The notes under the pieces were generated by a model. The model was not told the DNA's origin. It searched no databases and was given only the letters and a program-made list of their open reading frames with translations. DNA of 64,000 nucleotides, taken from a virus. Its lineage: Duplodnaviria > Heunggongvirae > Uroviricota > Caudoviricetes. Made by a program: the position numbers and the translations under genes. Shown here in pieces: positions 1-14,474 of this stretch. The stretch is from the IMG/VR virus record IMGVR_UViG_2609460125_000009. One strand, 5' to 3'. Position 1 is the first letter of the stretch. Each line of letters starts with the position of its first letter.

Positions 1-1
1 T

Positions 2-301
2 ATCGAACAGAAAACTCTCGAAACTCGTCAGGTTGTCGAGTTTGAATTGTCCAGTGTGTTCGATTTGATGGGGGTGCAACTGCCGTATCGTCAGATCATT
101 AAAAACACCTGCCCGTGGAAATACCGAGGGCCAGAATGCGGCTATACCGGTCCATATTTCGACAAAAATAACCAGCAGACGTCTATGTCTGGTGCGGATT
201 ACTGCACAAAACGTTATGACGCCTGTAATGCGCGTCGGAATTATTTTGCCGACGGTGTGATCCATTTTGGCGGATTTATTGGAGCTACGCGGTATGGGTA
301 A
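2..301 (+). CDS. minor tail protein L-like, C-terminal part (5' end lies outside the window)
   Basis: Frame is open from the window edge to TAA at 299-301. Cys-rich C-terminus (TCPWKYRGPECGY...C...C) is typical of lambda gpL-like tail-tip proteins, and it is followed by K-, I- and J-like genes. Confidence 0.7.
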   Translation: MEQKTLETRQVVEFELSSVFDLMGVQLPYRQIIKNTCPWKYRGPECGYTGPYFDKNNQQTSMSGADYCTKRYDACNARRNYFADGVIHFGGFIGATRYG

Positions 302-1091
302 TAAAGCAATCCCTGAGCTTGGCTCTGACGTTATGCAGCAAATCTATCTCTGCGCCATAAATCGCTACCCTAATGAAGCGTGTGGCTTTCTGGTTAGAAC
401 TAATGGCGACAAATATCGCTTTATGGAAGCGCGGAATGTTTCGGAGAACCCGCAGAACACTTTTGTAATGCACGTTGACGACATTATGGCGGCAGAGGAT
501 GCGGGTGATGTTATCGCAATCTGGCATTCACATACTGATGAATCAGCAGAAGCATCTGATGCCGATCGTGCAGGCTGCGAAGCGACGGAAGTTCCGTGGA
601 TGATTCTGGCTATTCGCAAGAATGTTGAGGGAGATGCCCCTTTCCATTTTAGCGAGATGAATGTGATCACACCTGATGGTTTCGAAATGCCATACCTGGG
701 CAGACCGTATGTATTTGGCGTATTCGATTGCTGGATGTTGTGTCGGGACTATTTGAAGCGTGAGTTTAACGTCGAACTAAACCCGAACGCACACCTGCAT
801 ATTCCATCGTGGTACACCGGCGATAACGACATTCTCGATCAGAACTACCGTAACGAGGGATTGGTGCGTCTTGCGCCCGGAACAGAGCCTCAACGTGGGG
901 ACATCTTCTTTATCCAATACGGGAAAATGCCTGACCACTGCGCGGTTTATATCGGCGATGGAATGATTCTTCATCACCAGATCGACCGCCTAAGTTGTCG
1001 TGCTTATTACGGCGGGATGTATCAGAAACATACGACGCATCACTTGCGTCACAGAGACTTGCTCAAGGGAGATGAGACGTGTCTGAGTTAG
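294..1091 (+). CDS. tail assembly protein K-like (MPN/JAMM metalloprotease domain plus NlpC/P60 domain)
   Basis: ATG at 294 overlaps the stop of the upstream gene (ATGGGTAA). N-terminal HSHTD metal-binding motif; C-terminal Cys/His region (DCW...HCAVYIG...H) consistent with NlpC/P60; position between L-like and I-like genes. Confidence 0.8.
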   Translation: MGNKAIPELGSDVMQQIYLCAINRYPNEACGFLVRTNGDKYRFMEARNVSENPQNTFVMHVDDIMAAEDAGDVIAIWHSHTDESAEASDADRAGCEATEVPWMILAIRKNVEGDAPFHFSEMNVITPDGFEMPYLGRPYVFGVFDCWMLCRDYLKREFNVELNPNAHLHIPSWYTGDNDILDQNYRNEGLVRLAPGTEPQRGDIFFIQYGKMPDHCAVYIGDGMILHHQIDRLSCRAYYGGMYQKHTTHHLRHRDLLKGDETCLS

Positions 1092-1669
1092 TTCATGTGC
1101 AGCTTGGCGGCCCTATGGCCAAACATTTTGGCCGCCACTGGCATCTAAAGGTGCGTAATACAAAACAGGCTCTGGATTTAATTGAGGCCAACAAGCCTGG
1201 GTTTAAAGCATGGATGAAGCGCAATATCAAAACCTATGACAGATACCACATCCAGATCACCAATAAACAGGGCCACAAGTGGTCTGTGGACGAGAGTGAA
1301 TATCAGATGATGGGGCAGTCTGACAATATTGCAAAAATCCGCATTACCCCTGTTCCGCGAGGAAGTGGTGGATCTGCTTTTGGATGGTTTCAGACGGTTG
1401 TTGGAGCAGTATTAATGGTTGCCTCGATATGGGTGCCCGCTCTTGCGCCTCTCGGTTTGTCACTGATGATGGGCGGTATAGCACAAATCATATCTCCGCA
1501 AGCCACTAACGAAAGTGTGAGGCAGGCGGATAACTCGAACTCTTATTACTTTGATGGACCTCAAAACACAACAAACCAGGGGAACCCTGTACAGCTTATC
1601 TATGGCGAGGAAATTTTAGTTGGCTCACAGGTCGTGAGTTCTTCTATCACCATCGACCAGCTTATGTAA
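1079..1669 (+). CDS. tail assembly protein I-like
   Basis: GTG start overlapping the end of the K-like gene; about 196 aa with a hydrophobic C-terminal half; synteny K-I-J as in lambda. Confidence 0.6.
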   Translation: MSELVHVQLGGPMAKHFGRHWHLKVRNTKQALDLIEANKPGFKAWMKRNIKTYDRYHIQITNKQGHKWSVDESEYQMMGQSDNIAKIRITPVPRGSGGSAFGWFQTVVGAVLMVASIWVPALAPLGLSLMMGGIAQIISPQATNESVRQADNSNSYYFDGPQNTTNQGNPVQLIYGEEILVGSQVVSSSITIDQLM

Positions 1670-1680
1670 TCAAGGATTTT

Positions 1681-4600
1681 TTGGACATGGAACAGTTCAA
1701 GAAGAAAAAATTACCGCTTCTTATTGCCGGTGCTGGTGGCAAGAAAAGTAAAAGCTCCAGCCGTACCCCGGTTGAAGCTGATGATACTGTCAATTCTCGT
1801 GCTATGGCAGCCATCCTCGACCTTCTTGGCGAGGGGGTTATCGGTGGCCTGGTAAATGGCGCAAAGTCGATCTTCATCGACGATTTACCGATCTTGAATG
1901 AAGATGGCTCTTCCAACTTCAGCGGTATTACATGGGATTTTCGTGACGGCTCACAAGATCAGACGCCAATGGCTGGTTTTGATTTTGTCGAAACGCCTAA
2001 GTCCGTAAATATTCAGCTTAAAAAAACACACGACGTTACGGTTTCAATCGATAACGATGAAGCTGATCGCGTTCGTGTCATCATGAAATTCCCCTCTTTA
2101 CGTAGCGTTGATAAAAGCTCTGGCGATACAAATGGCACTACGGTGAAGTACAAATTCCAGATCGCCAACGCAGACGCAACATTTTCTGATGTAGTGGCAG
2201 AAGGTGAGAAAAGCGTTGATATCACGCTAACGGCAAAGAAAACCGGCGTGTATTACCGTAGCTATGAGCTGAAACTGCCTAAGCCTGGTCGTGCATACAA
2301 GGTTAGGGTGATTCGTCTTACAGATGATAATAGTAGCCAGTACCTCTACAACGACACATGGGTTGATTCCATCGGTGAGATTGTCGACACGCCAATGAAC
2401 TACCCTAACTCTGCTCTTGTTGGCTTGAAGGTCAATTCAGAGCAGTTTGGTAGCACAATGCCTTCCCGTTCGTATTTGGTGCGCGGTATCAAAATCCGAG
2501 TACCGTCAAACTACAACGAATACACCAATACTTATGTCGGCGTATGGGACGGTACTTTTAAGCTGTTGTCTTCTTCAAACCCTGCGTGGATTCTCTACGA
2601 TTTGCTTACCAATACTCGGTATGGTCTTGGGCAATTTGTGTCGGAATCCATGATTGACCTCGGCCAGCTCTACCAGATTGGTCGATATTGTGACGAAGAG
2701 GTCGATGATGGCTTTGGGGGTAAAGAGAAACGCTTTGCAATCAATACGCAGATCACCAGTCGACAAGACGCATACCGATTAATTCAGGATATTGCCGGTG
2801 CATTCCGCGGCATGGTGTTTTGGGCTGGTGGCATGGTTAACATCATGCAGGATAGCCCATCAGATCCGGTAATGATGTTTACCAACTCCAACGTCAAAGA
2901 TGGACTGTTTACCTATAAAGGTTCTGCGCGTAAAGATCGCCCATCCGTTGCGCTCGTAACCTACAACAACAAGGAGGACGGTTATAAGCAAAACATCGAA
3001 TACGTTGAAGATCAGGACGCAATGCGCCGTTATGGTGAGCGTAAAACAGAAGTCGTAGCATTTGGATGTACAAGCCGAGGCCAGGCTCACCGAGTTGGTT
3101 TGTGGCTTTTGTATACCGCCAGAATGGAGTCGGATGTAATTACATTTACTGCCGGCTTAGACGCCTCATTTCTGATGCCTGGTGAAACCGTTCTGATTCA
3201 GAACAAATATCGTGCAGGTAAACGTAACTCCGGTCGAATTGTGGAGTTTACCAAAAACAGCATCACTCTCGATGCGCCTGTGTCGTTAGCTAAAAGTGGC
3301 AGCTTTATTCGGATATTGAATCAGGAAGGCAAAATCGTTGAACGCGATGTTCTTGAAACTGGCGAAAACATAACAAAGGTTACGTTTTCAAAAGCCCTGT
3401 CGTCAGCGGAAACGCCTGTTTTGAACGGTGTCTGGACAATTACAGAACCAGATCTCGAACCTATGCGCGTTCGCATCGTTAACATCGCGCAGGGGGAAAC
3501 GCCGGGTAGCTTTGACATCACCGCTGTTGAGAACAATCCGTCTAAATATGAGGCAATCGACAATGGCGCAACGCTGATCCCGCAGAATACGACGGTATTG
3601 GACCCAACTTACTCCAAGCCATCTAATCTGCAAATCACTGAAGGGACTTATCTCTCAAGCCCGGGCAACCTGTCAGTAAAACTGACTGCAACATGGGAAG
3701 GAAAATCTCCAGAGTATTGGATCAGTTGGCGACGTTCTGATGAAAACAATGTATCGAACTGGCAATCGGCGCGTGTAACCGAAGAGCAATACGAAATCGT
3801 TAATGTCGCGGAGAATGGACACTACGACTTCCAACTGTATGCGGTTTCATTCAACGGTAAAAAAACAGAGATTATCAGTACCGTTTATCAGGTGTTGGGC
3901 ACAATGACACCGCCGGATGCCCCAACGTCATTAACGGCCGTTGGAGACTATCGTAATGTGATACTGAATTGGGTTAATCCAGATTCGGTAGACCTTGATC
4001 ACATTAATGTTTACGCATCCCAGACCAACAATCTGGATACGGCGAAACTGATCGCAGAGTCTGCAAGCACCACCTTTACACATGCTGGTCTTGGGGATAG
4101 CGAAACGTGGTATTACTGGGTTCGAGCATCGAACAAGCGAGGTATGTTAAGCCCTCCGAACTCAAACTTGGGTACAGAGGCGACAACTCGCGATGTACTG
4201 TCGTTCCTGGCTGGCAAAATTACATCTTCCGAGCTTGGTCAGGCTCTGCTTGAGGACATCAACAGCAAAGCCTCTCAAGAAGCAGTTGACGAGTTAAATG
4301 AGCATATCAACCAGAGCGTCGAATCTTTGGAGGGGGCGGTAAACGACGTTAAGGAAGATATAGCTGAATTAGATAAGCAGTTCAGCGATAACCTCGCGGA
4401 TTTTGAAATAAAATTCAACGAGCGTAGCGATGCTTTGGAGAGCGCGCAAACCGAGCTTAAAGGTGAGGTTTCGGCAACGATCGACAAGGTCAATGAAGCG
4501 TTTGAAAAAATTGATGCTACTGATGCTGCAATTGTTGAAATCGAAAACACCGTATCTGAACACGATAAAGCTCTCGCTAATACAGTCGAGGCAATAAAGG

Positions 4601-6411
4601 CTGCAAGAGATGAAGCGGCGGCTCTTATTGCTAAGGAAAGCGAGGCTCGTGTTGAAGGCGATGCTGCAAACGCTAAACAACTGGAAGTGTTGCAGTCAAC
4701 GGTAGAGGAAAGCTCCGCTGCCGTTGAAGAAATGAAAAAGACGGTTGCAGAGGTCGATCGTGCCAGTGCAGAACTGACTACGAACATTGAGGCGTTAGCC
4801 AAAACAAATATTGACCTGGCTCTTCGTCAAGATGAAGACCAGCACAAGCAGATGGTCAATAACGCGAAGATCGCAACAACACAGAAAACCTTTGCTGATG
4901 ATATGTCTGCAATGGCCACGAAGGTTGAGGAAATTCGCGTAGAAATTGGCGAAGACATTAAGGCCAGTATTCTGGAAGAGTCCACCGCTCGTGCCGATGG
5001 CGATGAAGCGTTGGCAAAGCGTGTCACTCAGCTGCAATCTAAGTTTGAAGGAGATATCAGCGCGGCGATTAGTACAGAGCAGGAGGCTCGCACATCTGCC
5101 GATGAAGCTCTGACGACACAGATCACTCAGCTTGAGTCGAAAGTAAGCAACGATATCGTCGCAGCTATTAAGGAAGAGCAAGAAGCCCGAGCAACGGAAG
5201 ATTCGGCTCTGGCAAGCCAGATCACCCAACTTCAGGCAAAGGTTGATGATGATATTTCTGCTGCAATACGTAGTGAGCAGGAGGCCCGAGCAAGCGGGGA
5301 CTCTGCGTTAGCCAAACAAATAAACCAGCTTCAGTCAAAGGTTGACGGTGATATATCCGCGGCCATCACTCAGGAGCAGGAGGCCAGAGCAAGTGCTGAC
5401 CAGGCGCTCTCACGAGAAATTAACAGCCTGCGAGCACAAACCGGAACTGATATTGCCGCAGCGGTTGCTGTAGAGACAAAAGCAAGGACTGATGCCGATA
5501 GTGCATTGTCTACCCAGATTACGTCTCTTACAGCAAAAGCTAATGATCTCGAGGCGTCTCTTGCCAGAGAAACAACGGCTCGTGCAGATGGTGATACCGC
5601 TTTAACAAAAGAGGTTTCAAGTTTAAAAGCACAGACAGCGAAAGATATTAGTGCGGCCGTTGCAGTTGAAACGCAGGCTCGAACTGATGCTGACTCGGCG
5701 TTGTCGTCTCAGATCACCAAGCTGACCTCTCAATACAAAGAGGATATTAAAGCGGCTGTAGCAACCGAAACGAAAACGCGTACAGAGCAAGATGCTGCAT
5801 TGGCGACTCAAATCACAAACTTAGAGTCTCAAACGGCAGCCAACATTTCCGCGGCGGTAACAACTGAAACGACAGCGAGAACGCAGGCAGATAATGCTCT
5901 GAGTGGGCGAATCGATACTCTGAAAGCAGAGGTGGATGGAAATACCGCGACAATTCAACAGCAGGCAACAGCTATTGCTGATACCAACAAAAAAGTGTCA
6001 ACCGCGTGGACGTTGAAAATGGAAACTTCAACGAGCGGAGGGCAGAAGTATGTTGCCGGTATTGCGCTTGGTATTGACACCACTGGGCTATCTCAGTTTT
6101 TGGTTCAGGCGGACAGGTTTGGTTTGGTCAACTCTGTTAACGGGAAGATCACAACGCCATTTGTTATCGAAAACAGTATCGCCTATATGAATGGAGCGTA
6201 TATCAAGGATGGCACAATCACCAATGCAAAAGTAGGCGATCTGCAATCTACCAATTTTGTTAGCGGTAGATCTGGATGGCGGTTCGGCAAAAATGGAACG
6301 CTTGAGATCAACGGTAATAGCGGGGGTAATGGGCGACTGGTCATAAATGGTCAGCGGATTGACGTTTATGACGATAACAACGTCCTACGAGTAAGAATTG
6401 GCCTTCTGTAA
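1681..6411 (+). CDS. tail tip / central fibre protein, lambda gpJ-like host specificity protein with a long coiled-coil repeat insert
   Basis: 1576-aa ORF directly after the I-like gene; large N-terminal region, then about 1 kb of heptad-like tandem repeats, then a C-terminal distal domain. Confidence 0.85.
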   Translation: MDMEQFKKKKLPLLIAGAGGKKSKSSSRTPVEADDTVNSRAMAAILDLLGEGVIGGLVNGAKSIFIDDLPILNEDGSSNFSGITWDFRDGSQDQTPMAGFDFVETPKSVNIQLKKTHDVTVSIDNDEADRVRVIMKFPSLRSVDKSSGDTNGTTVKYKFQIANADATFSDVVAEGEKSVDITLTAKKTGVYYRSYELKLPKPGRAYKVRVIRLTDDNSSQYLYNDTWVDSIGEIVDTPMNYPNSALVGLKVNSEQFGSTMPSRSYLVRGIKIRVPSNYNEYTNTYVGVWDGTFKLLSSSNPAWILYDLLTNTRYGLGQFVSESMIDLGQLYQIGRYCDEEVDDGFGGKEKRFAINTQITSRQDAYRLIQDIAGAFRGMVFWAGGMVNIMQDSPSDPVMMFTNSNVKDGLFTYKGSARKDRPSVALVTYNNKEDGYKQNIEYVEDQDAMRRYGERKTEVVAFGCTSRGQAHRVGLWLLYTARMESDVITFTAGLDASFLMPGETVLIQNKYRAGKRNSGRIVEFTKNSITLDAPVSLAKSGSFIRILNQEGKIVERDVLETGENITKVTFSKALSSAETPVLNGVWTITEPDLEPMRVRIVNIAQGETPGSFDITAVENNPSKYEAIDNGATLIPQNTTVLDPTYSKPSNLQITEGTYLSSPGNLSVKLTATWEGKSPEYWISWRRSDENNVSNWQSARVTEEQYEIVNVAENGHYDFQLYAVSFNGKKTEIISTVYQVLGTMTPPDAPTSLTAVGDYRNVILNWVNPDSVDLDHINVYASQTNNLDTAKLIAESASTTFTHAGLGDSETWYYWVRASNKRGMLSPPNSNLGTEATTRDVLSFLAGKITSSELGQALLEDINSKASQEAVDELNEHINQSVESLEGAVNDVKEDIAELDKQFSDNLADFEIKFNERSDALESAQTELKGEVSATIDKVNEAFEKIDATDAAIVEIENTVSEHDKALANTVEAIKAARDEAAALIAKESEARVEGDAANAKQLEVLQSTVEESSAAVEEMKKTVAEVDRASAELTTNIEALAKTNIDLALRQDEDQHKQMVNNAKIATTQKTFADDMSAMATKVEEIRVEIGEDIKASILEESTARADGDEALAKRVTQLQSKFEGDISAAISTEQEARTSADEALTTQITQLESKVSNDIVAAIKEEQEARATEDSALASQITQLQAKVDDDISAAIRSEQEARASGDSALAKQINQLQSKVDGDISAAITQEQEARASADQALSREINSLRAQTGTDIAAAVAVETKARTDADSALSTQITSLTAKANDLEASLARETTARADGDTALTKEVSSLKAQTAKDISAAVAVETQARTDADSALSSQITKLTSQYKEDIKAAVATETKTRTEQDAALATQITNLESQTAANISAAVTTETTARTQADNALSGRIDTLKAEVDGNTATIQQQATAIADTNKKVSTAWTLKMETSTSGGQKYVAGIALGIDTTGLSQFLVQADRFGLVNSVNGKITTPFVIENSIAYMNGAYIKDGTITNAKVGDLQSTNFVSGRSGWRFGKNGTLEINGNSGGNGRLVINGQRIDVYDDNNVLRVRIGLL
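4981..5940 (+). repeat. in-frame tandem repeats of about 99 nt (33 aa) coding a coiled coil (EQEARxxADxALxxQIxxLxxKVxxDISAAI) inside the J-like gene
   Basis: Roughly ten recognisable repeat units are visible in the translation and in the nucleotide sequence. Confidence 0.7.
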
Positions 6412-6503
6412 TGTAGAAAAAAATATTTATATCGGTAAAAATAAGTAGGTACATACTTAGTGGTGGGCAAGGATAGCCCACCAAATCAAGGAGCATATTC
6501 AAC

Positions 6504-9500
6504 ATGTGGTACAGGGAAGGTACTATCACATTTACACAGGGCAGCAATACTCTGGTTGGGGCAGGGACAGCCTGGAACGTAACAGCTAATGGTGTGTTGC
6601 CGGGGATGATCGTCATTGGCCCCGACAATAAGCTGTATGAGATCAAGCGCGTAACCAGTGATACGAACATTGTTCTCTCAGAACCTTATACCGGCGAAAC
6701 TCAGTCTGAAGTTCCGTGCCGAATCATTACGACCTATGAAGGCGACTTAACACAGTTTAGCGCGCGCTTTACAGCACTAATGTCGCGTATGTCGGCTGAT
6801 TCCAAGTCCATGCGCAGTTGGTTGACTGCTCTGGATGAGGTGACAATCGAGCGTGAAGACGGTACAGAAGTGACCGTTAAGCCGCTAATGCAGATCGTCA
6901 ACGAGCACAACGAAAACGTTGAGTGGTATAAAAATAACACTGACGCGATTGATGCTGCTGGCGACAAAGCTCGTGAGGCGGCGGCCAGTGCTGCCGCAGC
7001 AGCAGAAAGCGCCAATATCGCTGGAGAAAAAGCCTCTCAAGCGTCTCAAAGTGCATCCGCTGCAGAGTCCTCAAAAAGCGCGGCGGCCACAAGTGCCGGT
7101 GCCGCGAAAACGTCTGAAACGAATGCTGCAGCGTCACAAAAATCTGCAGCCACTTCTGCATCCACCGCGACCACGAAGGCGTCAGAAGCTGCCACCTCAG
7201 CCCGGGATGCGGCGGCCTCAAAAGAGGCAGCGAAATCATCAGAAACGAGCGCAGCCTCGAGCGCCAGTAATGCCGCTTCCTCGGCAACGGCGGCAGGAAA
7301 TTCCGCGAAGGCGGCAAAAACGTCCGAGACGAACGCCAGGTCTTCTGAAACGGCAGCGGGACAGAGCGCCTCGGCTGCGGCAGGCTCAAAAACAGCGGCT
7401 GCGTCGTCTGCCAGTGCCGCGTCAACAAGTGCCGGGCAGGCCTCAGCCAGTGCCACCGCCGCCGGAAAATCGGCAGAAAGTGCCGCATCGTCTGCTTCAA
7501 CAGCCACAACGAAGGCTGGCGAAGCCACTGAACAGGCCAGCGCAGCAGCGAGGTCTGCTTCCGCAGCGAAGACATCCGAAACGAACGCGAAAGCGTCGGA
7601 AACCCGTGCAGAATCCTCAAAAACGGCAGCCGCATCGTCCGCCAGTTCGGCAGCGTCATCGGCATCATCTGCGTCTGCTTCAAAAGATGAGGCGACCAGA
7701 CAGGCGTCAGCAGCGAAGGGCAGCGCCACGACGGCATCCACGAAAGCAACAGAGGCGGCAGGCAGTGCGACGGCAGCATCTCAGAGCAAAACTGCTGCTG
7801 AATCCGCTGCGACCCGTGCGGAAGCTGCTGCTGATCGTGCTGAAGAGATTGCCGGTGCAGTTGCGATGGAAGACGCAAGCCTTACAACTAAAGGTGTTGT
7901 GAAACTTAGCAGTGCTGTCGACAGCACCAGTGAATCGCTGGCCGCAACGCCAAAAGCAGTTAAAGTAGTCAATGACAATGCGAACAGCAGGGTGCCATCT
8001 AACCGAAAAATTAACGGGAAAGCACTGACTGCGGATATCACATTAACGCCGAAAGATATTGGTACTTTAAATTCAATAACGATGTCTTTCTCTGGCGGGG
8101 CCGGGTGGTTCAAACTGGCTACTGTTACAATGCCACAAGCGAGTTCCATCGTTTACATCGCATTGATTGGTGGCGCTGGTTACAACGTCGGCTCCCCACA
8201 TCAGGCAGGCATTTCAGAACTGGTTCTACGAGCAGGCAATGGAAACCCCAAAGGGATTACAGGTGCTTTGTGGAAGCGTACAGCTGTCGGATTAACGAAT
8301 TTCGCCTGGATCAACACATCCGGCGATACATATGATATTTACGTTGAGATTGGCAATTATGCGACTCGTGTAAATATCCATTGGGATTGTACTGCAAATG
8401 CGACAGTTTCTATTTATACATCGCCAACATATTCAGCTAGTAAGCCTTCCAGCGTTACCGATGGTGTTGTTTATACGATGTATAGCACACATCAGAAACC
8501 GACGCCGTTAGATATTGGAGCACTGCCAACAACCGGAGGAACAGTTTCAGGTCCGTTGTCTGTTACTGGTGGGATCACCGGAACATTAAATGGTAATGCA
8601 AGTACAGCAACGAAATTGCAGACGGCAAGATCTATCGGTGGAGTTGGTTTCGACGGTTCTGCAAATATCAACCTTCCAGGTGTAAATACTACGGGTAATC
8701 AGAACACCACTGGTAATGCTGCAACTGCTACAAAACTTCAGACGGCAAGAACTATCGGCGGCGTGAGCTTTGATGGTACTGCGAATATTAATTTGCCAGG
8801 TGTTAATACGACTGGTAATCAGAATACAACGGGCAACGCGGCTACTGCTACGAAGTTGCAGACTGCGCGTACTATCAATGGGGTGTCGTTTGACGGCTCG
8901 GCAAATATTTCCTTGTCGCCAGCAAATATAGGTTGCCCGGCATCTCCTACTGGTTGGTTAACTACAGGAAGTAATGGCGGAGCAATAACAACAGCACAGT
9001 TAGTGACGTTATTGCAAAATAATGGAGCATTTAACACAAAGTCATGGATTGCTCGATGTGCTTGGGCCTATGCCAATAGTGCAACCATACCAAATAGTGA
9101 AACTGGTTGTGGCGTTATTCCATTGGCAGGAGCTGTTATAGAGGTATTTAATAACGGTAGTAGCTCAAACAATTATACGATCCGTATAACAACGGCCACA
9201 ACGACGAGTGTCTCTGGTGCTCTCACTAATGCGGAGTTTATCTATGTATTTAATGGCACAGATTATTCTCCGGGATGGCGAAGAGTATATAACACGAAAA
9301 ACAAACCAACAGCCTCTGATGTCGGTGCATTACCTCTTACCGGTGGTACATTATCTGGAGGTTTGACATCTTCTGGCGAGATCATTTCAAAATATGCAAA
9401 TGGTTTCCGCATTGCTTACGGTAGCTTTGGGTTCTTTATCCGTAATGATGGATCGAACACATATTTCATGCTAACAGCATCAGGAGACACATTAGGTTCA

Positions 9501-10661
9501 TGGAACGGTTTGCGACCAATTACAATTAATAATACCAGCGGTGCTGTATCAATTGGTAATGGACTAAATGTGACTGGTGGCGTAAATGGTAGTTTGAACG
9601 GTAATGCTTCAACAGCTACGAAGTTGCAAACAGCGAGAAACATCAATGGTGTTAAGTTTGATGGCTCAGGCGATATCAACATTAATACATTGGTATCTCG
9701 TGGCCGAGTTACGGCGTTAAGCGGCTCTACTCAAGGCACTGCTGGCATTCAAATGTACGAGGCGTACAACAATAGCTACCCGACCACGTATGGCAACGTA
9801 TTGCACATGAAAGGTGCGAGTGCTGCTGGTGAGGGCGAGTTGCTTATTGGCTGGAGTGGTACGAGCGGTGCACATGCGCCAGTTTTCATTCGCTCACGAA
9901 GAGATACCACAGATGCGGCATGGTCAGCGTGGGCGCAGGTATATACTGCTAAGGATTCAATCCCTGGTGTGAATACAACCGGTAATCAGAATACTACTGG
10001 TAATGCCGCAACAGCCACAAAATTGCAGACAGCAAGGAAAATTGCTGGTGTGGCGTTTGATGGCTCTGCCGATATTACTTTGACTGCGGCTAACCTTAAT
10101 GCTTATACGAAAACAGAGGTAACAAACCTTCTAAGTTCCTATGCAAGCAGATCATCACTGACAGGCTATAGTGGCAACCTGGATATTATTGCTGAAACAC
10201 TGGTTGTCAAATCAGGCGGTAGTGGAGGGTTTGCTATATGGGATATTGGCACAACTACTAGCGGTGCCAATATGTACATTGATCCAAACCCTGGTATCAA
10301 TACAGTTTGGCGTTCAACATCTTCAAGGCGCTATAAAAAGGATATTGAAACATTACAAGATCGATATGCTGATGAACTTTTGTCATTAAGACCTGTTTGG
10401 TATCGTTCAATTTGTCGAGGTGACCGAAAGGATTGGGGGTATTACGGCCTTATTGCTGAAGAGGTTGGTGAGATTGCCCCGCAATATGTCCATTGGCGTG
10501 AACCAACAAATAATGATTCTCCAGAAGATATTTCCTCAAATGGTATGGTCGCTGAAGGGGTGATGTATGAGCGTTTGGTTGTACCACTCATTCATCATAT
10601 TCAGCAATTGACCAAAAGGGTTGAGGAGCTTGAAACGAAGTTAAATTCACCTAAAGAATAA
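6504..10661 (+). CDS. side tail fibre protein with Ala/Ser-rich stalk, fibre repeats and C-terminal S74-type intramolecular chaperone domain
   Basis: 1385-aa ORF with RBS AAGGAG upstream; repeated GNASTATKLQTAR units (lambda Stf-like fibre repeat); C-terminal SSRRYKKDIETL...LRPVWYRS...GLIAEEV region resembles the self-cleaving chaperone of endosialidase-type fibres. Confidence 0.85.
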   Translation: MWYREGTITFTQGSNTLVGAGTAWNVTANGVLPGMIVIGPDNKLYEIKRVTSDTNIVLSEPYTGETQSEVPCRIITTYEGDLTQFSARFTALMSRMSADSKSMRSWLTALDEVTIEREDGTEVTVKPLMQIVNEHNENVEWYKNNTDAIDAAGDKAREAAASAAAAAESANIAGEKASQASQSASAAESSKSAAATSAGAAKTSETNAAASQKSAATSASTATTKASEAATSARDAAASKEAAKSSETSAASSASNAASSATAAGNSAKAAKTSETNARSSETAAGQSASAAAGSKTAAASSASAASTSAGQASASATAAGKSAESAASSASTATTKAGEATEQASAAARSASAAKTSETNAKASETRAESSKTAAASSASSAASSASSASASKDEATRQASAAKGSATTASTKATEAAGSATAASQSKTAAESAATRAEAAADRAEEIAGAVAMEDASLTTKGVVKLSSAVDSTSESLAATPKAVKVVNDNANSRVPSNRKINGKALTADITLTPKDIGTLNSITMSFSGGAGWFKLATVTMPQASSIVYIALIGGAGYNVGSPHQAGISELVLRAGNGNPKGITGALWKRTAVGLTNFAWINTSGDTYDIYVEIGNYATRVNIHWDCTANATVSIYTSPTYSASKPSSVTDGVVYTMYSTHQKPTPLDIGALPTTGGTVSGPLSVTGGITGTLNGNASTATKLQTARSIGGVGFDGSANINLPGVNTTGNQNTTGNAATATKLQTARTIGGVSFDGTANINLPGVNTTGNQNTTGNAATATKLQTARTINGVSFDGSANISLSPANIGCPASPTGWLTTGSNGGAITTAQLVTLLQNNGAFNTKSWIARCAWAYANSATIPNSETGCGVIPLAGAVIEVFNNGSSSNNYTIRITTATTTSVSGALTNAEFIYVFNGTDYSPGWRRVYNTKNKPTASDVGALPLTGGTLSGGLTSSGEIISKYANGFRIAYGSFGFFIRNDGSNTYFMLTASGDTLGSWNGLRPITINNTSGAVSIGNGLNVTGGVNGSLNGNASTATKLQTARNINGVKFDGSGDININTLVSRGRVTALSGSTQGTAGIQMYEAYNNSYPTTYGNVLHMKGASAAGEGELLIGWSGTSGAHAPVFIRSRRDTTDAAWSAWAQVYTAKDSIPGVNTTGNQNTTGNAATATKLQTARKIAGVAFDGSADITLTAANLNAYTKTEVTNLLSSYASRSSLTGYSGNLDIIAETLVVKSGGSGGFAIWDIGTTTSGANMYIDPNPGINTVWRSTSSRRYKKDIETLQDRYADELLSLRPVWYRSICRGDRKDWGYYGLIAEEVGEIAPQYVHWREPTNNDSPEDISSNGMVAEGVMYERLVVPLIHHIQQLTKRVEELETKLNSPKE
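6950..7830 (+). repeat. low-complexity Ala/Ser/Thr-rich coding region of the tail fibre gene
   Basis: Compositionally biased GC-rich stretch that creates long spurious ORFs in all other frames. Confidence 0.7.
8590..8925 (+). repeat. tandem 120-nt (40-aa) fibre repeats (PGVNTTGNQNTTGNAATATKLQTAR...)
   Basis: Near-identical units begin near 8677 and 8797; a further diverged copy lies near 9961-10080. Confidence 0.7.
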
Positions 10662-10721
10662 ACAACTTCAATCGGGGCTGGAACTAAACCAGCCCCTGCT
10701 TAAAAGTATAAGGATATATTT

Positions 10722-10976
10722 ATGAGCTATGGTGCACAGGTATGGTCGCCATCAAGACAGGAGATGGTCGATGCGTTGGCCCCTGTTTATTACCTCGATT
10801 ATTTTACTCCCTCTGGTTCTGGAAGTAGAACATATGAGGTTGAGGCGGGATTGGGAATCGACTATTACATAATGGACGTAACCAATGGGAAATACACAAG
10901 TCTTACGGTTTCTGGAAATACCATTTCATGGTCTGGAGCTAGTGGCAATTTAAACATATTGGTTTTTCAAAAATAA
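10722..10976 (+). CDS. hypothetical protein (tail-fibre-associated position)
   Basis: 84-aa ORF directly downstream of the fibre gene; stop overlaps the next start. Confidence 0.4.
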   Translation: MSYGAQVWSPSRQEMVDALAPVYYLDYFTPSGSGSRTYEVEAGLGIDYYIMDVTNGKYTSLTVSGNTISWSGASGNLNILVFQK

Positions 10977-11584
10977 TGTACGGAAGCAAGATATATCGAT
11001 CTGACGGGAAGGTCTGGATGTCTCCTTCTTTGTCTCCTATCGTCTTTCAGAGAAAGCAGGTTGTTTCTTTGTCTGGCGGGACAGAGTTTAACACCCAAAT
11101 ATCTCCAGATCGTTCACCGATGATTTTTGTTGCCTATTCGAAAGCTGTTTCATTAATAGCCAACAGAATAGTGCGTAACAACCAGGTGATTTACAGTTTC
11201 GGAGGTCAGGGTAGCGACTCTAGTGCCACGATATACGTATTTTCGAAAGGTATAGCCAAAAAAGAAACTTGGGGCATGAGTTTTTTCAATGCACAAGGGG
11301 AGGAAATCTATAATACGGCAAATATCCCACTTTCATTTACCTTTCTTAATAATACGGAGTGGAACAGCTCTGGAGGGCATGTTTTTGATTACCCACCAGC
11401 GATAATCCCAACATATGCGAATGTGTTCGCTGTTCCAGTACCGGGCGGAGCCATGACAATGGTTTATGGATATGCGGCATATGGAAATACTGTTAGCTCG
11501 ATATTCGTAAACCAACTTAATGGCGGCCATAGTTTTAGCGTAAATGGCAGAGTACCGGTAATAAATAGAAATCTGTATAACTGA
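10976..11584 (+). CDS. hypothetical protein, possibly fibre-associated or receptor-binding accessory
   Basis: 202-aa ORF translationally coupled to the preceding ORF; no recognisable motif. Confidence 0.45.
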   Translation: MYGSKIYRSDGKVWMSPSLSPIVFQRKQVVSLSGGTEFNTQISPDRSPMIFVAYSKAVSLIANRIVRNNQVIYSFGGQGSDSSATIYVFSKGIAKKETWGMSFFNAQGEEIYNTANIPLSFTFLNNTEWNSSGGHVFDYPPAIIPTYANVFAVPVPGGAMTMVYGYAAYGNTVSSIFVNQLNGGHSFSVNGRVPVINRNLYN

Positions 11585-11591
11585 TGAGTAA

Positions 11592-11825
11592 ATGATGAAA
11601 AGATTATTTCTAACAATAGCTGTTGTTCTCTCTCTTACTGGCTGCCAGAAATTGCCGACACCTATATGTTACGGTGAGGCTATCATTGGTGGACAGGAGA
11701 CAGTCATACCCATATATGCTGTTAAAAAAGTGAACGACTATACCTTATACAAAGCGGGTAGCATCTATAACTGGCGATGGGTAGGAGTAGGTGCTTTCTC
11801 ATCAGTCCGTTGCAATGTTGAATGA
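11592..11825 (+). CDS. small lipoprotein (candidate Cor/Llp-like superinfection exclusion protein)
   Basis: Signal peptide with lipobox LTGC (MMKRLFLTIAVVLSLTGC); 77 aa; sits between fibre genes and the lysis cassette. Confidence 0.5.
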   Translation: MMKRLFLTIAVVLSLTGCQKLPTPICYGEAIIGGQETVIPIYAVKKVNDYTLYKAGSIYNWRWVGVGAFSSVRCNVE

Positions 11826-11906
11826 TAAGTAAGTACACACCTACAACAAGAAGGTGAAATGTGATATAAATCCGCCATCCCGATTTGACTTTTCATGGAG
11901 GAAAAC

Positions 11907-12230
11907 ATGTCGAACGAGATGGCGGGCGTTACAACAGAGCAAGTTGAGCGTATTGCCGCGATCGTTGCTCGGGAGGTTGTTGGCAAATTAGGTAAAGAGC
12001 TACGTGAAGAAATTGGCCAGGAGGTCAATGATCAGCTGAAAACCTACTTTGGTGATATGACCCCGGCGCAACATAGTATTCAACACTCCAACCTGGACAA
12101 ACTCCTTAACCGGTTAGATTCCATCTCCAGTGGGTTCTTTGGCGGCATTGTTTCTAAAATAACGTCGTTCATTATTACTGCACTGCTTTTGGGGTTAGCC
12201 GCGTATGGCGTAAAAAATGGACTGCAATAA
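11907..12230 (+). CDS. membrane protein with single C-terminal transmembrane helix (holin-like position)
   Basis: ATG at 11907 preceded by GGAGGA; one C-terminal hydrophobic helix (ITSFIITALLLGLAAYGV); directly upstream of the endolysin-like gene. Confidence 0.4.
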   Translation: MSNEMAGVTTEQVERIAAIVAREVVGKLGKELREEIGQEVNDQLKTYFGDMTPAQHSIQHSNLDKLLNRLDSISSGFFGGIVSKITSFIITALLLGLAAYGVKNGLQ

Positions 12231-12243
12231 CAGGAGATCAAGG

Positions 12244-12936
12244 ATGAAGACTCCGAGAGGCATTCGTAATAATAACCCCGGTAATCTTGATAAAGGATCA
12301 CCGTGGCAAGGTCTGGTTGCGAATCCAGACGAACCGCGCTTTTGCACGTTTAAAGACCCTGTTTGGGGGATTCGTGCGCTGGCGGTGACTCTAATTACCT
12401 ACCACGACAAACGTCGCGCAAAAGACGGCTCAAGTATCGATACCATTCGTGAAGTTATTGAACGTTGGGCACCGCCGAATGAAAACAACACTGACGCCTA
12501 CATTAATGAGGTGTCTAAAGCCGTTGGTGTAACCGCAGACATGATCATCGATCTGCATGATTACGACATCCTTCGACCTTTGGTTGAGGCAATCATTCGC
12601 CACGAGAATGGTCGAGGTCCACTAAAAACGCTGAACACCTGGTATGCGGCAGAAGTTATTGAAGAAGGTCTGCGTCGAGCTGGCGTCGTTAAGCCGGTGA
12701 AAACCGTGAAGGCTGTTCCTGTAACTAAAGAAACCGCAGGCGCAACTGTCACAGCAGGTATTGGTCTGGCGCAGCTTGCCGATGTTATGCCGCAGGTTTC
12801 CGCTGCTATGGATAAAGCACAAGGTCATATCTCTAGCGGGGATACAGTACGCATCATCTTCGGTATTGCCACTATTTTTGTGGCCGGATTCATTGCCTGG
12901 TCGCAGGTAAGAAGACACCAGAAAGGGATGGTCTAA
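12244..12936 (+). CDS. putative endolysin / cell-wall hydrolase with C-terminal membrane anchor
   Basis: RBS AGGAG before the ATG; N-terminal GIRNNNPGNL motif; C-terminal hydrophobic helix (IIFGIATIFVAGFIAW); located between the holin-like ORF and the spanin-like ORFs. Enzymatic class not resolved. Confidence 0.4.
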   Translation: MKTPRGIRNNNPGNLDKGSPWQGLVANPDEPRFCTFKDPVWGIRALAVTLITYHDKRRAKDGSSIDTIREVIERWAPPNENNTDAYINEVSKAVGVTADMIIDLHDYDILRPLVEAIIRHENGRGPLKTLNTWYAAEVIEEGLRRAGVVKPVKTVKAVPVTKETAGATVTAGIGLAQLADVMPQVSAAMDKAQGHISSGDTVRIIFGIATIFVAGFIAWSQVRRHQKGMV

Positions 12937-12937
12937 T

Positions 12938-13189
12938 ATGCTAGGCAGCCTGATGACAAAGCTAAAAGTTGCTTTGATTACGCTGGCTGCCGTTCTTTTC
13001 GTTCTTGTCGGCGCTTACACGATGGGCGGAAATGCGGCGCGACGAGCAATGGAAGAGAAGGCAAAACAGGAAGACAGAAAACGACTTCAAAACACAGTGA
13101 AAGTGGTGAATGAGACGAGCAGTAAAATACGTCAGAAAGATGCTTCTGCCGTTCATCGTGAGTTGTATGATAAGTGGGTGCGTCATTAA
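12938..13189 (+). CDS. Rz-like inner-membrane spanin component
   Basis: N-terminal transmembrane helix followed by a charged coiled-coil region; overlapped by an out-of-frame lipoprotein ORF. Confidence 0.5.
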   Translation: MLGSLMTKLKVALITLAAVLFVLVGAYTMGGNAARRAMEEKAKQEDRKRLQNTVKVVNETSSKIRQKDASAVHRELYDKWVRH

Positions 13190-13325
13190 ACCACAAACAG
13201 CCAGCGTGTTGTTCTGCGATGGGGCTGAGCCTATCTATATCAGCAATAATGATGTAATGACTGAAGAAACCGAACGCCAAATCCTTTTTCACAATACGAT
13301 GGGAGAGAGGGTTTGTGGTTGGTGA
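13110..13325 (+). CDS. Rz1-like outer-membrane lipoprotein spanin component
   Basis: Begins inside the Rz-like gene in another frame; lipobox ISGC; small, with Pro and Cys residues in the mature part. Confidence 0.45.
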   Translation: MRRAVKYVRKMLLPFIVSCMISGCVIKPQTASVLFCDGAEPIYISNNDVMTEETERQILFHNTMGERVCGW

Positions 13326-13335
13326 TGTCGAAGTT

Positions 13336-13357
13336 CCCCTCAAATGAGGGGAACACA
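13336..13357. terminator. hairpin between convergent genes
   Basis: Perfect palindrome GTTCCCCTC-AAAT-GAGGGGAAC between the + strand spanin stop and the - strand toxin stop; no clean T tract. Confidence 0.35.
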
Positions 13358-13879
13358 TTATTCTTCGAACAATTTTTCGATAGATTTTGTAGGATAGAAC
13401 AAAGAACGCTCGTTGTTACCAACCAGCTGGATAAAGCCTAAACTTTTATAAAACGCCTTGGCTTTGTCATTTAACGCCTCAACGAAAAGTCCATGAATGC
13501 CTACAGCAAGAGATGCATTGTACACAACGCGCATTGCATGTGTTACAAGCATTGAGCCAAATCCTTGACCTTGAAGGGACTTGTCCAAAGCCAGCCTACC
13601 CAAAGTAACACTTGGAACATTCCGATAAGGAACCTTCTTTTGTTTGCTTCTTGAAGGTAAGGACTCCTTTTCAAAACAACTACCTGACAAAGTGTAATAT
13701 CCTAACACTTTTGGCCTTTCTTCTTGAGTGCAAAGCACATAAGCACGAAGAATTTTTCCCTCATGCTGCCTTTTTAAGTGGTTGGCTAAAAAGGCGTTTA
13801 GTGACTCTTCGCCGCAATCAAAACCGTTTAGATCATAATCTTTCTCTCCAGAGAAAATCTCTATCGTTGTATTGCTCAC
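13358..13879 (-). CDS. GNAT-family acetyltransferase toxin (TacT/KacT-like)
   Basis: 173 aa with GNAT acetyl-CoA fold motifs (QGQGFG...); immediately downstream of a DUF1778-type small ORF on the same strand. Confidence 0.75.
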   Translation of the reverse strand: MSNTTIEIFSGEKDYDLNGFDCGEESLNAFLANHLKRQHEGKILRAYVLCTQEERPKVLGYYTLSGSCFEKESLPSRSKQKKVPYRNVPSVTLGRLALDKSLQGQGFGSMLVTHAMRVVYNASLAVGIHGLFVEALNDKAKAFYKSLGFIQLVGNNERSLFYPTKSIEKLFEE

Positions 13880-13886
13880 GAGTAAA

Positions 13887-14156
13887 CTACTCCATGCTTT
13901 TCAGACGATCAGCAGCTCGTTTCAGCTTGTCGTTCGGTGCCGGAGGATTGCTTATAGCGTCCATAACCAGATTCCAGGATTCTTCATTCAGAACTAGTCT
14001 ACGGTGTTGCTCTATAACTTTCACGGCACGTTCAGATGCACTGCTAACCATAAACTGAGTAATGCTCTGGTTAGACATTGCGGCAGCTTCCTCGATGATG
14101 CTTTTATCGTCATCGGTTAATCTCAAATCGATGCGCTGCTTTTTTAGTGCTGACAT
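13887..14156 (-). CDS. DUF1778-family antitoxin (TacA/KacA-like)
   Basis: ATG at 14156 with AGGAGG upstream; product MSALKKQRIDLRLTDDDKSIIEEAA... is the typical N-terminus of DUF1778 antitoxins; ends 8 bp before the toxin start. Confidence 0.75.
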   Translation of the reverse strand: MSALKKQRIDLRLTDDDKSIIEEAAAMSNQSITQFMVSSASERAVKVIEQHRRLVLNEESWNLVMDAISNPPAPNDKLKRAADRLKSME

Positions 14157-14474
14157 GTATTCCTCCTGATGGCCGTGATGTAGGAAGGCCATCAATCTCC
14201 TCTGTTCAAACTGAGTTTTCGACTCAAAAATTACTTTAAAAGGCTATAGCCCATTACGTGTGCATTATCAAATTGTGTACGGCATAACACCGTACTTGTA
14301 ATATAGAGGTCATTGTTACTTTTTTCAACAGACAAATACAAGCTATGATTGCCAATTGTTAATCACAACCTACCATTTAACCTTTACACCGCAGCCGTAG
14401 GCATTTAGGCTATATCACATATAAGAAAACAAGTTGTTTCAGACGATAATTATATACGCAAAGGGAACTCTCCA

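Follow-up and report, generated by a model that had tools for sequence, protein, structure and literature searches.

In phage T5 the receptor-blocking lipoprotein Llp has Cys1 plus a Cys11-Cys58 disulfide by which its two ends are linked, and it binds the periplasmic face of FhuA (PMC9586334). The Cor lipoproteins of other phages share the fold of Llp despite an identity of 18-25% (preprint 10.64898/2026.03.26.714494; PMC13164509), and Cor is reported to inactivate FhuA function (preprint 10.64898/2026.03.26.714494). The phages T1, N15 and HK022 are all FhuA-dependent, and in the BASEL collection the full cor cassette is found only in FhuA-dependent phages, ten out of ten (PMC13164509). [quoted passage not shown] Maffei et al. 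(2021) describe such loci as "bona fide RBP loci" that contain receptor-binding proteins (RBPs) and cognate exclusion proteins (PMC8594841). Rtp45, a lipoprotein from an LptD-targeting phage, displaces LptD loops physically, with no long-range allostery. In the case of Salmonella phage SSU5, the published receptor is the LPS core, which is bound by the fibre adhesin gp22; the parts of the SSU5 literature that were accessible report no protein receptor. No paper was found in the literature that names Cor together with SSU5 phage-plasmids.

The gene described here is located in a phage-plasmid of the SSU5-like type from E. coli. The whole stretch of DNA that was analysed, 64,000 nucleotides, is called the window below. 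A sequence-only reading of the window had proposed a small lipobox-protein gene of 77 aa at 11592-11825, and both the open reading frame and the LTGC signal are confirmed. The gene and its parts are as follows.

11592..11825, plus strand: cor, gene for the precursor of the Cor phage-exclusion lipoprotein (ORF; PHROG 1119; NCBIfam NF047972; RefSeq 'cor' in pSTEC409_1)
11592..11642, plus strand: lipoprotein signal peptide of cor, residues 1-17, as read from the sequence
11634..11645, plus strand: lipobox L-T-G-C of cor, as read from the sequence
11643..11822, plus strand: mature Cor, 60 aa, with Cys1 as the predicted lipidated residue and a small beta-barrel in the model

The frame on the plus strand runs from ATG 11592 to TGA 11823-11825 and encodes MMKRLFLTIAVVLSLTGCQKLPTPICYGEAIIGGQETVIPIYAVKKVNDYTLYKAGSIYNWRWVGVGAFSSVRCNVE, a protein that begins with MMKRLFLTIAVVLSLTGC and continues with QKLPTP. 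RefSeq begins the gene one codon later, at a second ATG (11595), for a product of 76 aa. The sole purine-rich stretch 5' of cor is GAG at 11585-11587, and its spacing is better for ATG 11595. The N-terminus is short and basic (KR) and is followed by a hydrophobic core and the lipobox L15-T16-G17-C18; the Pfam model LPAM_1 scores 17.3 bits against the protein, under its cut-off of 20. In E. coli, a residue other than Asp at position +2 directs a lipoprotein to the outer membrane. Cor has Gln at this position, not Asp, so outer-membrane sorting is predicted by the E. coli rule, and Cor would be located there.

Judged by its sequence, the ORF clearly belongs to the Cor family. NCBIfam NF047972 ("phage exclusion lipoprotein Cor"), an equivalog family with a curated cut-off of 31 bits, matches residues 2-75 of 77 with 80.5 bits (E = 6.7e-23), and PHROG 1119 ("Cor superinfection exclusion protein") matches with E = 3.8e-30. 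Using tblastn, matches to Cor were found in 169 phage records and 145 plasmid records. A homologue search with the single sequence gave only 4 proteins; when it was repeated with an alignment, 209 database proteins matched the Cor profile at E <= 0.001. Since PHROG, NCBIfam, tblastn and the profile all give matches, the ORF is real, far beyond chance. The local identity of Cor (tblastn) is 59% to SSU5_025, 58% to the cor product of Stx2 phage 86, 47% to HK022, 42% to N15 and about 33% to T1-like phages, while global identities over the full precursor are 55% for SSU5, 47% for HK022, 42% for N15 and 28% for T1. The T1 Cor is only 36% identical to the Cor of HK022 or N15, which means that it is further apart from these two than the window Cor is from either. 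Among relatives the length of Cor is 75-78 aa, with a lipobox and three invariant cysteines.

That the gene encodes a receptor-blocking lipoprotein of the Cor/Llp type had been argued from size, lipobox and position. This proposal is now supported by homology above the equivalog cut-off, by the RefSeq name cor, and by the 47% and 42% identity to HK022 and N15. We put the probability that the product is a Cor-family receptor-blocking exclusion lipoprotein at roughly 85%, and exclusion activity of the window Cor is predicted from its sequence. The gene is already known, since RefSeq labels it cor in near-identical plasmids; the original reading is thus correct but ordinary.

In an alignment of 80 homologues the columns C18, C26, I41 and C74 are invariant, and all four residues are kept in the window Cor. 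The near-invariant residues G34, Y42, T51, A55, G56, W61, W63, V64 and F69 are also kept. The window Cor deviates at I58 and Y59, where at least 90% of the 80 homologues have P and F; the Pro at position 58 is also absent from the Cors of SSU5 and the Stx phage. In mature numbering C18 is Cys1, C26 of the precursor is Cys9 and C74 is Cys57, and mature Cor probably has a Cys9-Cys57 disulfide. An AlphaFold2 model built on the homologue alignment has a mean pLDDT of 86.5, reaching 93-94 at residues 21-70. Searching this model against the PDB with Foldseek gave no match at E <= 0.001. The hits listed include many Tudor- and SH3-like barrels, although Llp (8a60_B) ranks first by TM-score (0.50 and 0.61). 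The Cor model is closest to T5 Llp as seen in the complex with FhuA (14-15% identity in the structural alignment), and it has the small beta-barrel of the Llp fold, with termini that the probable disulfide would tie. Rtp45 is absent among the 60 structural matches listed. When the Cor profile was compared with PDB sequences, 8a60_B was reached only at E = 0.18 with an alignment that is mostly signal peptide, so this link to Llp is not significant, and membership of the T5 Llp sequence family was rejected. Going by the model, the window Cor is expected to work like Llp.

The gene had been placed between the tail fibre genes and the lysis cassette. This is right in outline, except that the immediate upstream neighbours are two small genes and not a fibre gene. 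The neighbourhood contains the following features.

1681..6411, plus strand: J-like tail tip protein, 1576 aa (NCBIfam lambda_TipJ, E = 3e-160)
6504..10661, plus strand: side tail fibre, 1385 aa (Pfam Gp34_trimer and Peptidase_S74)
10674..10696, plus strand: G+C-rich hairpin GGGGCTGG-N7-CCAGCCCC with an 8-bp stem, between the fibre stop and ORF84
10722..10976, plus strand: ORF84, opening gene of the extended cor cassette (match to PHROG 557, 'outer membrane protein', with E = 1.3e-24)
10976..11584, plus strand: ORF202, probably the RBP of the cassette (match to PHROG 425, 'membrane associated protein', with E = 4.5e-49)
11907..12230, plus strand: holin (PHROG matches; annotation of Cyrano and SSU5)
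12244..12936, plus strand: endolysin (PHROG matches; annotation of Cyrano and SSU5)
12938..13189, plus strand: Rz (PHROG matches; annotation of Cyrano and SSU5)
13110..13325, plus strand: Rz1 (PHROG matches; annotation of Cyrano and SSU5)
13333..13354, plus strand: strong terminator after the lysis cassette (terminator scan)

The gene order ORF84-ORF202-cor is the same as gp22-gp23-Cor in N15 and ST32-ST31-Cor in T1, and is also found in a T1-like phage and in SSU5. ORF84 is homologous to N15 gp22, T1 ST32 and SSU5_023. Protein identity of ORF84 and ORF202 to their counterparts in N15, T1 and the T1-like phage is only 23-31%, whereas these counterparts share 54-63% among themselves. Reading of the two proteins revealed no signal peptide or transmembrane stretch, and the membrane labels of PHROG 557 and 425 are therefore historical. 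No family in Pfam or NCBIfam matches ORF84 or ORF202, sequence searches of both against solved structures gave nothing meaningful, and a profile of ORF202 made from 66 homologues did not reach any RBP when compared with PDB sequences. The predicted fold of ORF202, on the other hand, matches that of a solved siphophage RBP, the best structural match being an RBP that binds LptD. Based on this model, ORF202 is the probable receptor-binding protein of the cassette, and ORF84 is perhaps its adaptor or partner. Given the RBP-like fold of ORF202, cor would stand immediately behind an RBP gene, an arrangement known from pb5-llp in T5 and rtp44-rtp45 in Rtp. The likeness to known receptor blockers in size and position that had been seen in the sequence alone also holds up, with 76-77 aa and a place directly 3' of the RBP-like gene. 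The link between PHROG 425 and an RBP fold supports the view that the genes 5' of cor are real receptor binders, and makes the label 'membrane associated protein' misleading.

The start of ORF202 at 10976 overlaps the stop of ORF84 (TAATG). In RefSeq and in the SSU5 record ORF202 is called as 188 aa (start at 11018), whereas it has 202 aa from 10976. With the start at 10976 the protein regains the N-terminus MYG..G..SP, which N15, the T1-like phage, the Stx phage and SSU5 have in common, and for this reason the 188-aa calls are probably too short. The cassette can also be split. In the Stx2-converting phage 86 (our record L006), which is short-tailed, cor is at 4986..5213 after a fibre adhesin gene and is 52-58% identical to the window cor in global and local alignments; the PHROG 557/425 pair is at 8441..9345, about 3 kb further, after another fibre gene and before lom.

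Further upstream, the J-like protein is 98% identical to J of Cyrano (pLF82), and its C-terminal ~200 aa are 32% identical to N15 gp21. The side fibre is 91% identical to the Cyrano fibre as far as about residue 1219, and has Peptidase_S74 at residues 1273-1329. It also has a long Ala/Ser-rich low-complexity stretch at about residues 150-450, and its gene contains internal repeats with a 120-nt offset at 8591-8909. The hairpin that follows the fibre gene has a folding energy of -19.1 kcal/mol (z = -4.24 against shuffles) and no proper T-run. In T1 there is an annotated terminator at the equivalent place, between the gene for the J-like tail protein and the first cassette gene. The hairpin in the window is possibly a weak terminator, an attenuator or an RNA-stability element.

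The gap between ORF202 and cor is 7-10 nt, and cor ends 81 nt upstream of the holin gene. A promoter scan found no convincing promoter for cor, and promoter-like sites were fewer than in shuffled sequence. From the fibre gene to the lysis genes, including the gap between cor and the holin gene, the scan detected neither promoter nor terminator, and as a consequence co-transcription of cor with the late genes for tail and lysis is the simplest reading. Such co-transcription would favour a role like that of Llp in lytic growth, shielding the infected cell and the progeny, over constitutive lysogenic conversion. Since no promoter of its own was detected, expression of cor in the plasmid-prophage state is uncertain.

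Several observations were made in the lysis region itself. The endolysin matches PHROG 873 and no Pfam family, and is named 'membrane protein' in RefSeq. It ends in the hydrophobic segment IIFGIATIFVAGFIAW; C-terminal anchoring is unusual for an endolysin. Rz1, the o-spanin, uses the +1 frame across the 3' end of Rz, continues beyond it, and is a second lipobox protein nearby (...MISGC...), distinct from cor. Between the lysis cassette and parA there is a toxin-antitoxin pair on the minus strand (13358..13879 and 13887..14195). It consists of a GNAT acetyltransferase toxin (Pfam Acetyltransf_7/1) and a TacA-like antitoxin (TacA1, E = 8.6e-26), and is called KacT in the Cyrano annotation.

Positions 10600..11900 of the window are 99.9% identical to plasmid pSTEC409_1, with 99.9-100% over the stretches compared. 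Of 5,426 complete E. coli genomes, 66 contain the whole of this region, in every case on a plasmid, and in all 15 of the full-length matches listed (out of the 66) the gene is annotated "cor: phage exclusion lipoprotein Cor". An intact cor with at least 90% identity is found in 73 plasmid records, 71 of which have at least 95%. The block is carried by about a third of E. coli SSU5-like plasmids, 66 of 205 when counted among complete genomes with any match and 73 of 191 when counted among plasmid records. What is exchanged can be seen by comparison with phage Cyrano, the closest relative, using blastn.

10144..11823, plus strand: block swapped with respect to Cyrano, containing the fibre tip (Peptidase_S74), ORF84, ORF202 and cor (blastn)

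The alignment of the window with Cyrano covers 1-9685 and 9930-10143, and resumes at 11824, in the stop codon of cor. In Cyrano the fibre gene is followed straight by the holin gene, with about 500 nt in place of the fibre tip and cassette, while the lysis region is 98.7-98.8% identical to that of the window and J 98%. The C-terminal Peptidase_S74 self-chaperone of the side fibre sits inside this block. Cyrano produces virions although it lacks the cassette, so particles can form without these genes. The idea that the C-terminus of J varies together with the cassette was considered as well and rejected, as the Cyrano J remains 98% identical in spite of the missing cassette. PhiR41_1 has a third version of the locus; no descriptive paper on PhiR41_1 was found in the literature. 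Many SSU5-like plasmids start matching the window at 11823-11829, which indicates that recombination has repeatedly joined sequences at the end of cor. In SSU5 the cassette stands behind a different fibre and an adhesin, so it can be combined with more than one fibre tip.

Between the window and SSU5, dN/dS is not computable as the synonymous sites are saturated, and pN and pS are given instead. The three cassette genes have a pN of 0.17-0.29 with a saturated pS of 0.77-0.84, and the adjacent holin and endolysin genes a pN of 0.02-0.04. The cassette genes are under purifying selection yet fast-evolving, as expected for host-range genes. The gain and loss of the block with J unchanged amounts to a natural experiment on the role of the cassette proteins.

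In the mechanism that we propose, the Cor precursor would be exported, lipidated on Cys18 and cut by signal peptidase II. The resulting 60-residue beta-barrel, its termini joined by the Cys9-Cys57 disulfide, would bind the periplasmic face of the outer-membrane protein that serves as terminal receptor, and hold it in a conformation that the phage RBP cannot bind. Infected or lysogenic cells would in this way be guarded against their own phage and against others using the same receptor, and progeny would not be wasted on the debris of lysed cells. Viewed like this, cor would be the third gene of a portable unit, ORF84-ORF202 (RBP-like)-cor, that combines a receptor binder with the matching blocker. 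Among candidate receptors the TonB-dependent transporter FhuA is the most likely one. It is the best guess because the cassette is complete, because Cor is close to the Cors of HK022 and N15, and because the model best matches FhuA-bound Llp; for FhuA as the specific target of the window Cor, we consider the odds somewhat better than even.

A different outer-membrane protein is the alternative that survives best. The low identity of ORF84 and ORF202 to the N15, T1 and T1-like versions suggests that the receptor specificity of the window allele may differ, and a Cor-type exclusion lipoprotein could then be aimed at a non-FhuA protein, for example the TonB-dependent BtuB, recognised by the diverged ORF202. 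An identity of 23-31%, against 54-63% among the N15, T1 and T1-like versions, fits such a change of target, as does a cassette pN far above that of holin and endolysin. Cor-like proteins also occur in BtuB-dependent phages (PMC13164509), the RBP fold is not tied to one receptor given that the best structural match of ORF202 binds LptD, and the window Cor differs at the near-invariant positions 58 and 59. Weighing against this, the full cassette went together with FhuA in all ten BASEL phages and in T1, N15, HK022, ES18 and phi80 (PMC13164509), the window Cor is within the sequence range of Cors from FhuA-dependent phages, and the best structural match of its model is Llp bound to FhuA. A non-FhuA target is a minority possibility, to be kept in mind. 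A related and equally tentative idea is that the SSU5-type cassette forms a separate specificity class of the binder-blocker unit, which could bind and block a non-FhuA outer-membrane protein and be added or removed without a change in J. If this is true, the choice of terminal receptor in widespread E. coli phage-plasmids would be optional and exchangeable, and Cor would have co-evolved to block the new target.

It is also conceivable that Cor excludes by way of several abundant outer-membrane proteins, or by a block after adsorption such as one at DNA entry, instead of by an allosteric closure like that of Llp. According to a 2026 preprint, it has yet to be worked out how Cor exclusion operates at the molecular level (10.64898/2026.03.26.714494), which leaves room for such a mode of action. 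The predicted fold and cysteine pattern nevertheless agree with those of Llp, a protein with a solved mode of periplasmic binding to FhuA, and in the KanT1 paper an AlphaFold3 model docks a T1-like Cor on the periplasmic face of FhuA with an ipTM of 0.84 (PMC13164509). The reported inactivation of FhuA function by Cor speaks in the same direction, and we regard this explanation as improbable. Less probable again is that cor is a remnant, silent or in decay, that no longer serves a function. Such a remnant would agree with the lack of a detected promoter for cor itself and with the block being missing from many related plasmids, but the frame is intact with its invariant residues kept, cor is at least 90% identical in 73 plasmid records, its pN is well below its pS in the comparison with SSU5, and it is tightly packed behind ORF202. 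An accessory role in lysis, as a spanin-like lipoprotein or lysis regulator, was rejected as next to impossible: cor does lie 81 nt 5' of the holin gene, and the scan detected no terminator in this gap, but the window already has its full Rz/Rz1 spanin pair (12938..13325), the protein matches Cor only and no lysis family, the lysis cassette (93-99% identical) works without cor in Cyrano and PhiR41_1, and the Cor homologues of N15, HK022 and T1 are found away from lysis genes.

The reading as a Cor-type receptor blocker has consequences for the bacteria that carry these plasmids. For hosts of block-carrying plasmids, resistance is predicted against phages using the same receptor, which would be T1, T5 and phi80 if it is FhuA, and the normal function of the transporter may be impaired in such hosts.

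When compared with known systems, the window Cor falls into the same HMM family as the Cors of HK022, N15, phi80, mEp167 and T1, above the curated cut-off. T5 Llp (lytic conversion lipoprotein; PDB 8A60, 7QJF) is without significant sequence similarity to it. Rtp45/Rtp44 and the Oekolampad RBP with its SE lipoprotein are the corresponding systems of LptD-targeting small siphophages, and there is no sequence link between ORF202 and the solved RBP of this type. As in N15 and T1, cor is the end of a two-gene-plus-cor cassette downstream of the tail-tip genes. The differences from the N15/T1 type are in the setting: the host element is an SSU5-like phage-plasmid of ~110 kb, and the cassette follows a long side-fibre gene and runs into the lysis genes with no detected terminator, whereas the N15/T1 cassette comes directly after J. 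N15 has a terminator after cor and T1 carries the gene on the opposite strand, neither of which is the case in the window. The partner genes are a deeply diverged allele (23-31% identity) compared with N15 and T1, and Cor is off the consensus P and F at positions 58 and 59. A counterpart in orthologous position is SSU5_025, the 'Cor-like protein' of Salmonella phage SSU5, with the order fibre-ORF84-ORF202-cor-holin-endolysin-Rz/Rz1. This region is collinear with the window at 75% nucleotide identity, while the Cor protein itself is only 55-59% identical, depending on the method. SSU5 has a separate fibre adhesin, gp22, before the cassette, where the window has a fibre with a Peptidase_S74 self-chaperone. 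The same gene order is found in SSU5-like plasmids of Enterobacter, Citrobacter and Salmonella, in which the gene is labelled 'lipoprotein'.
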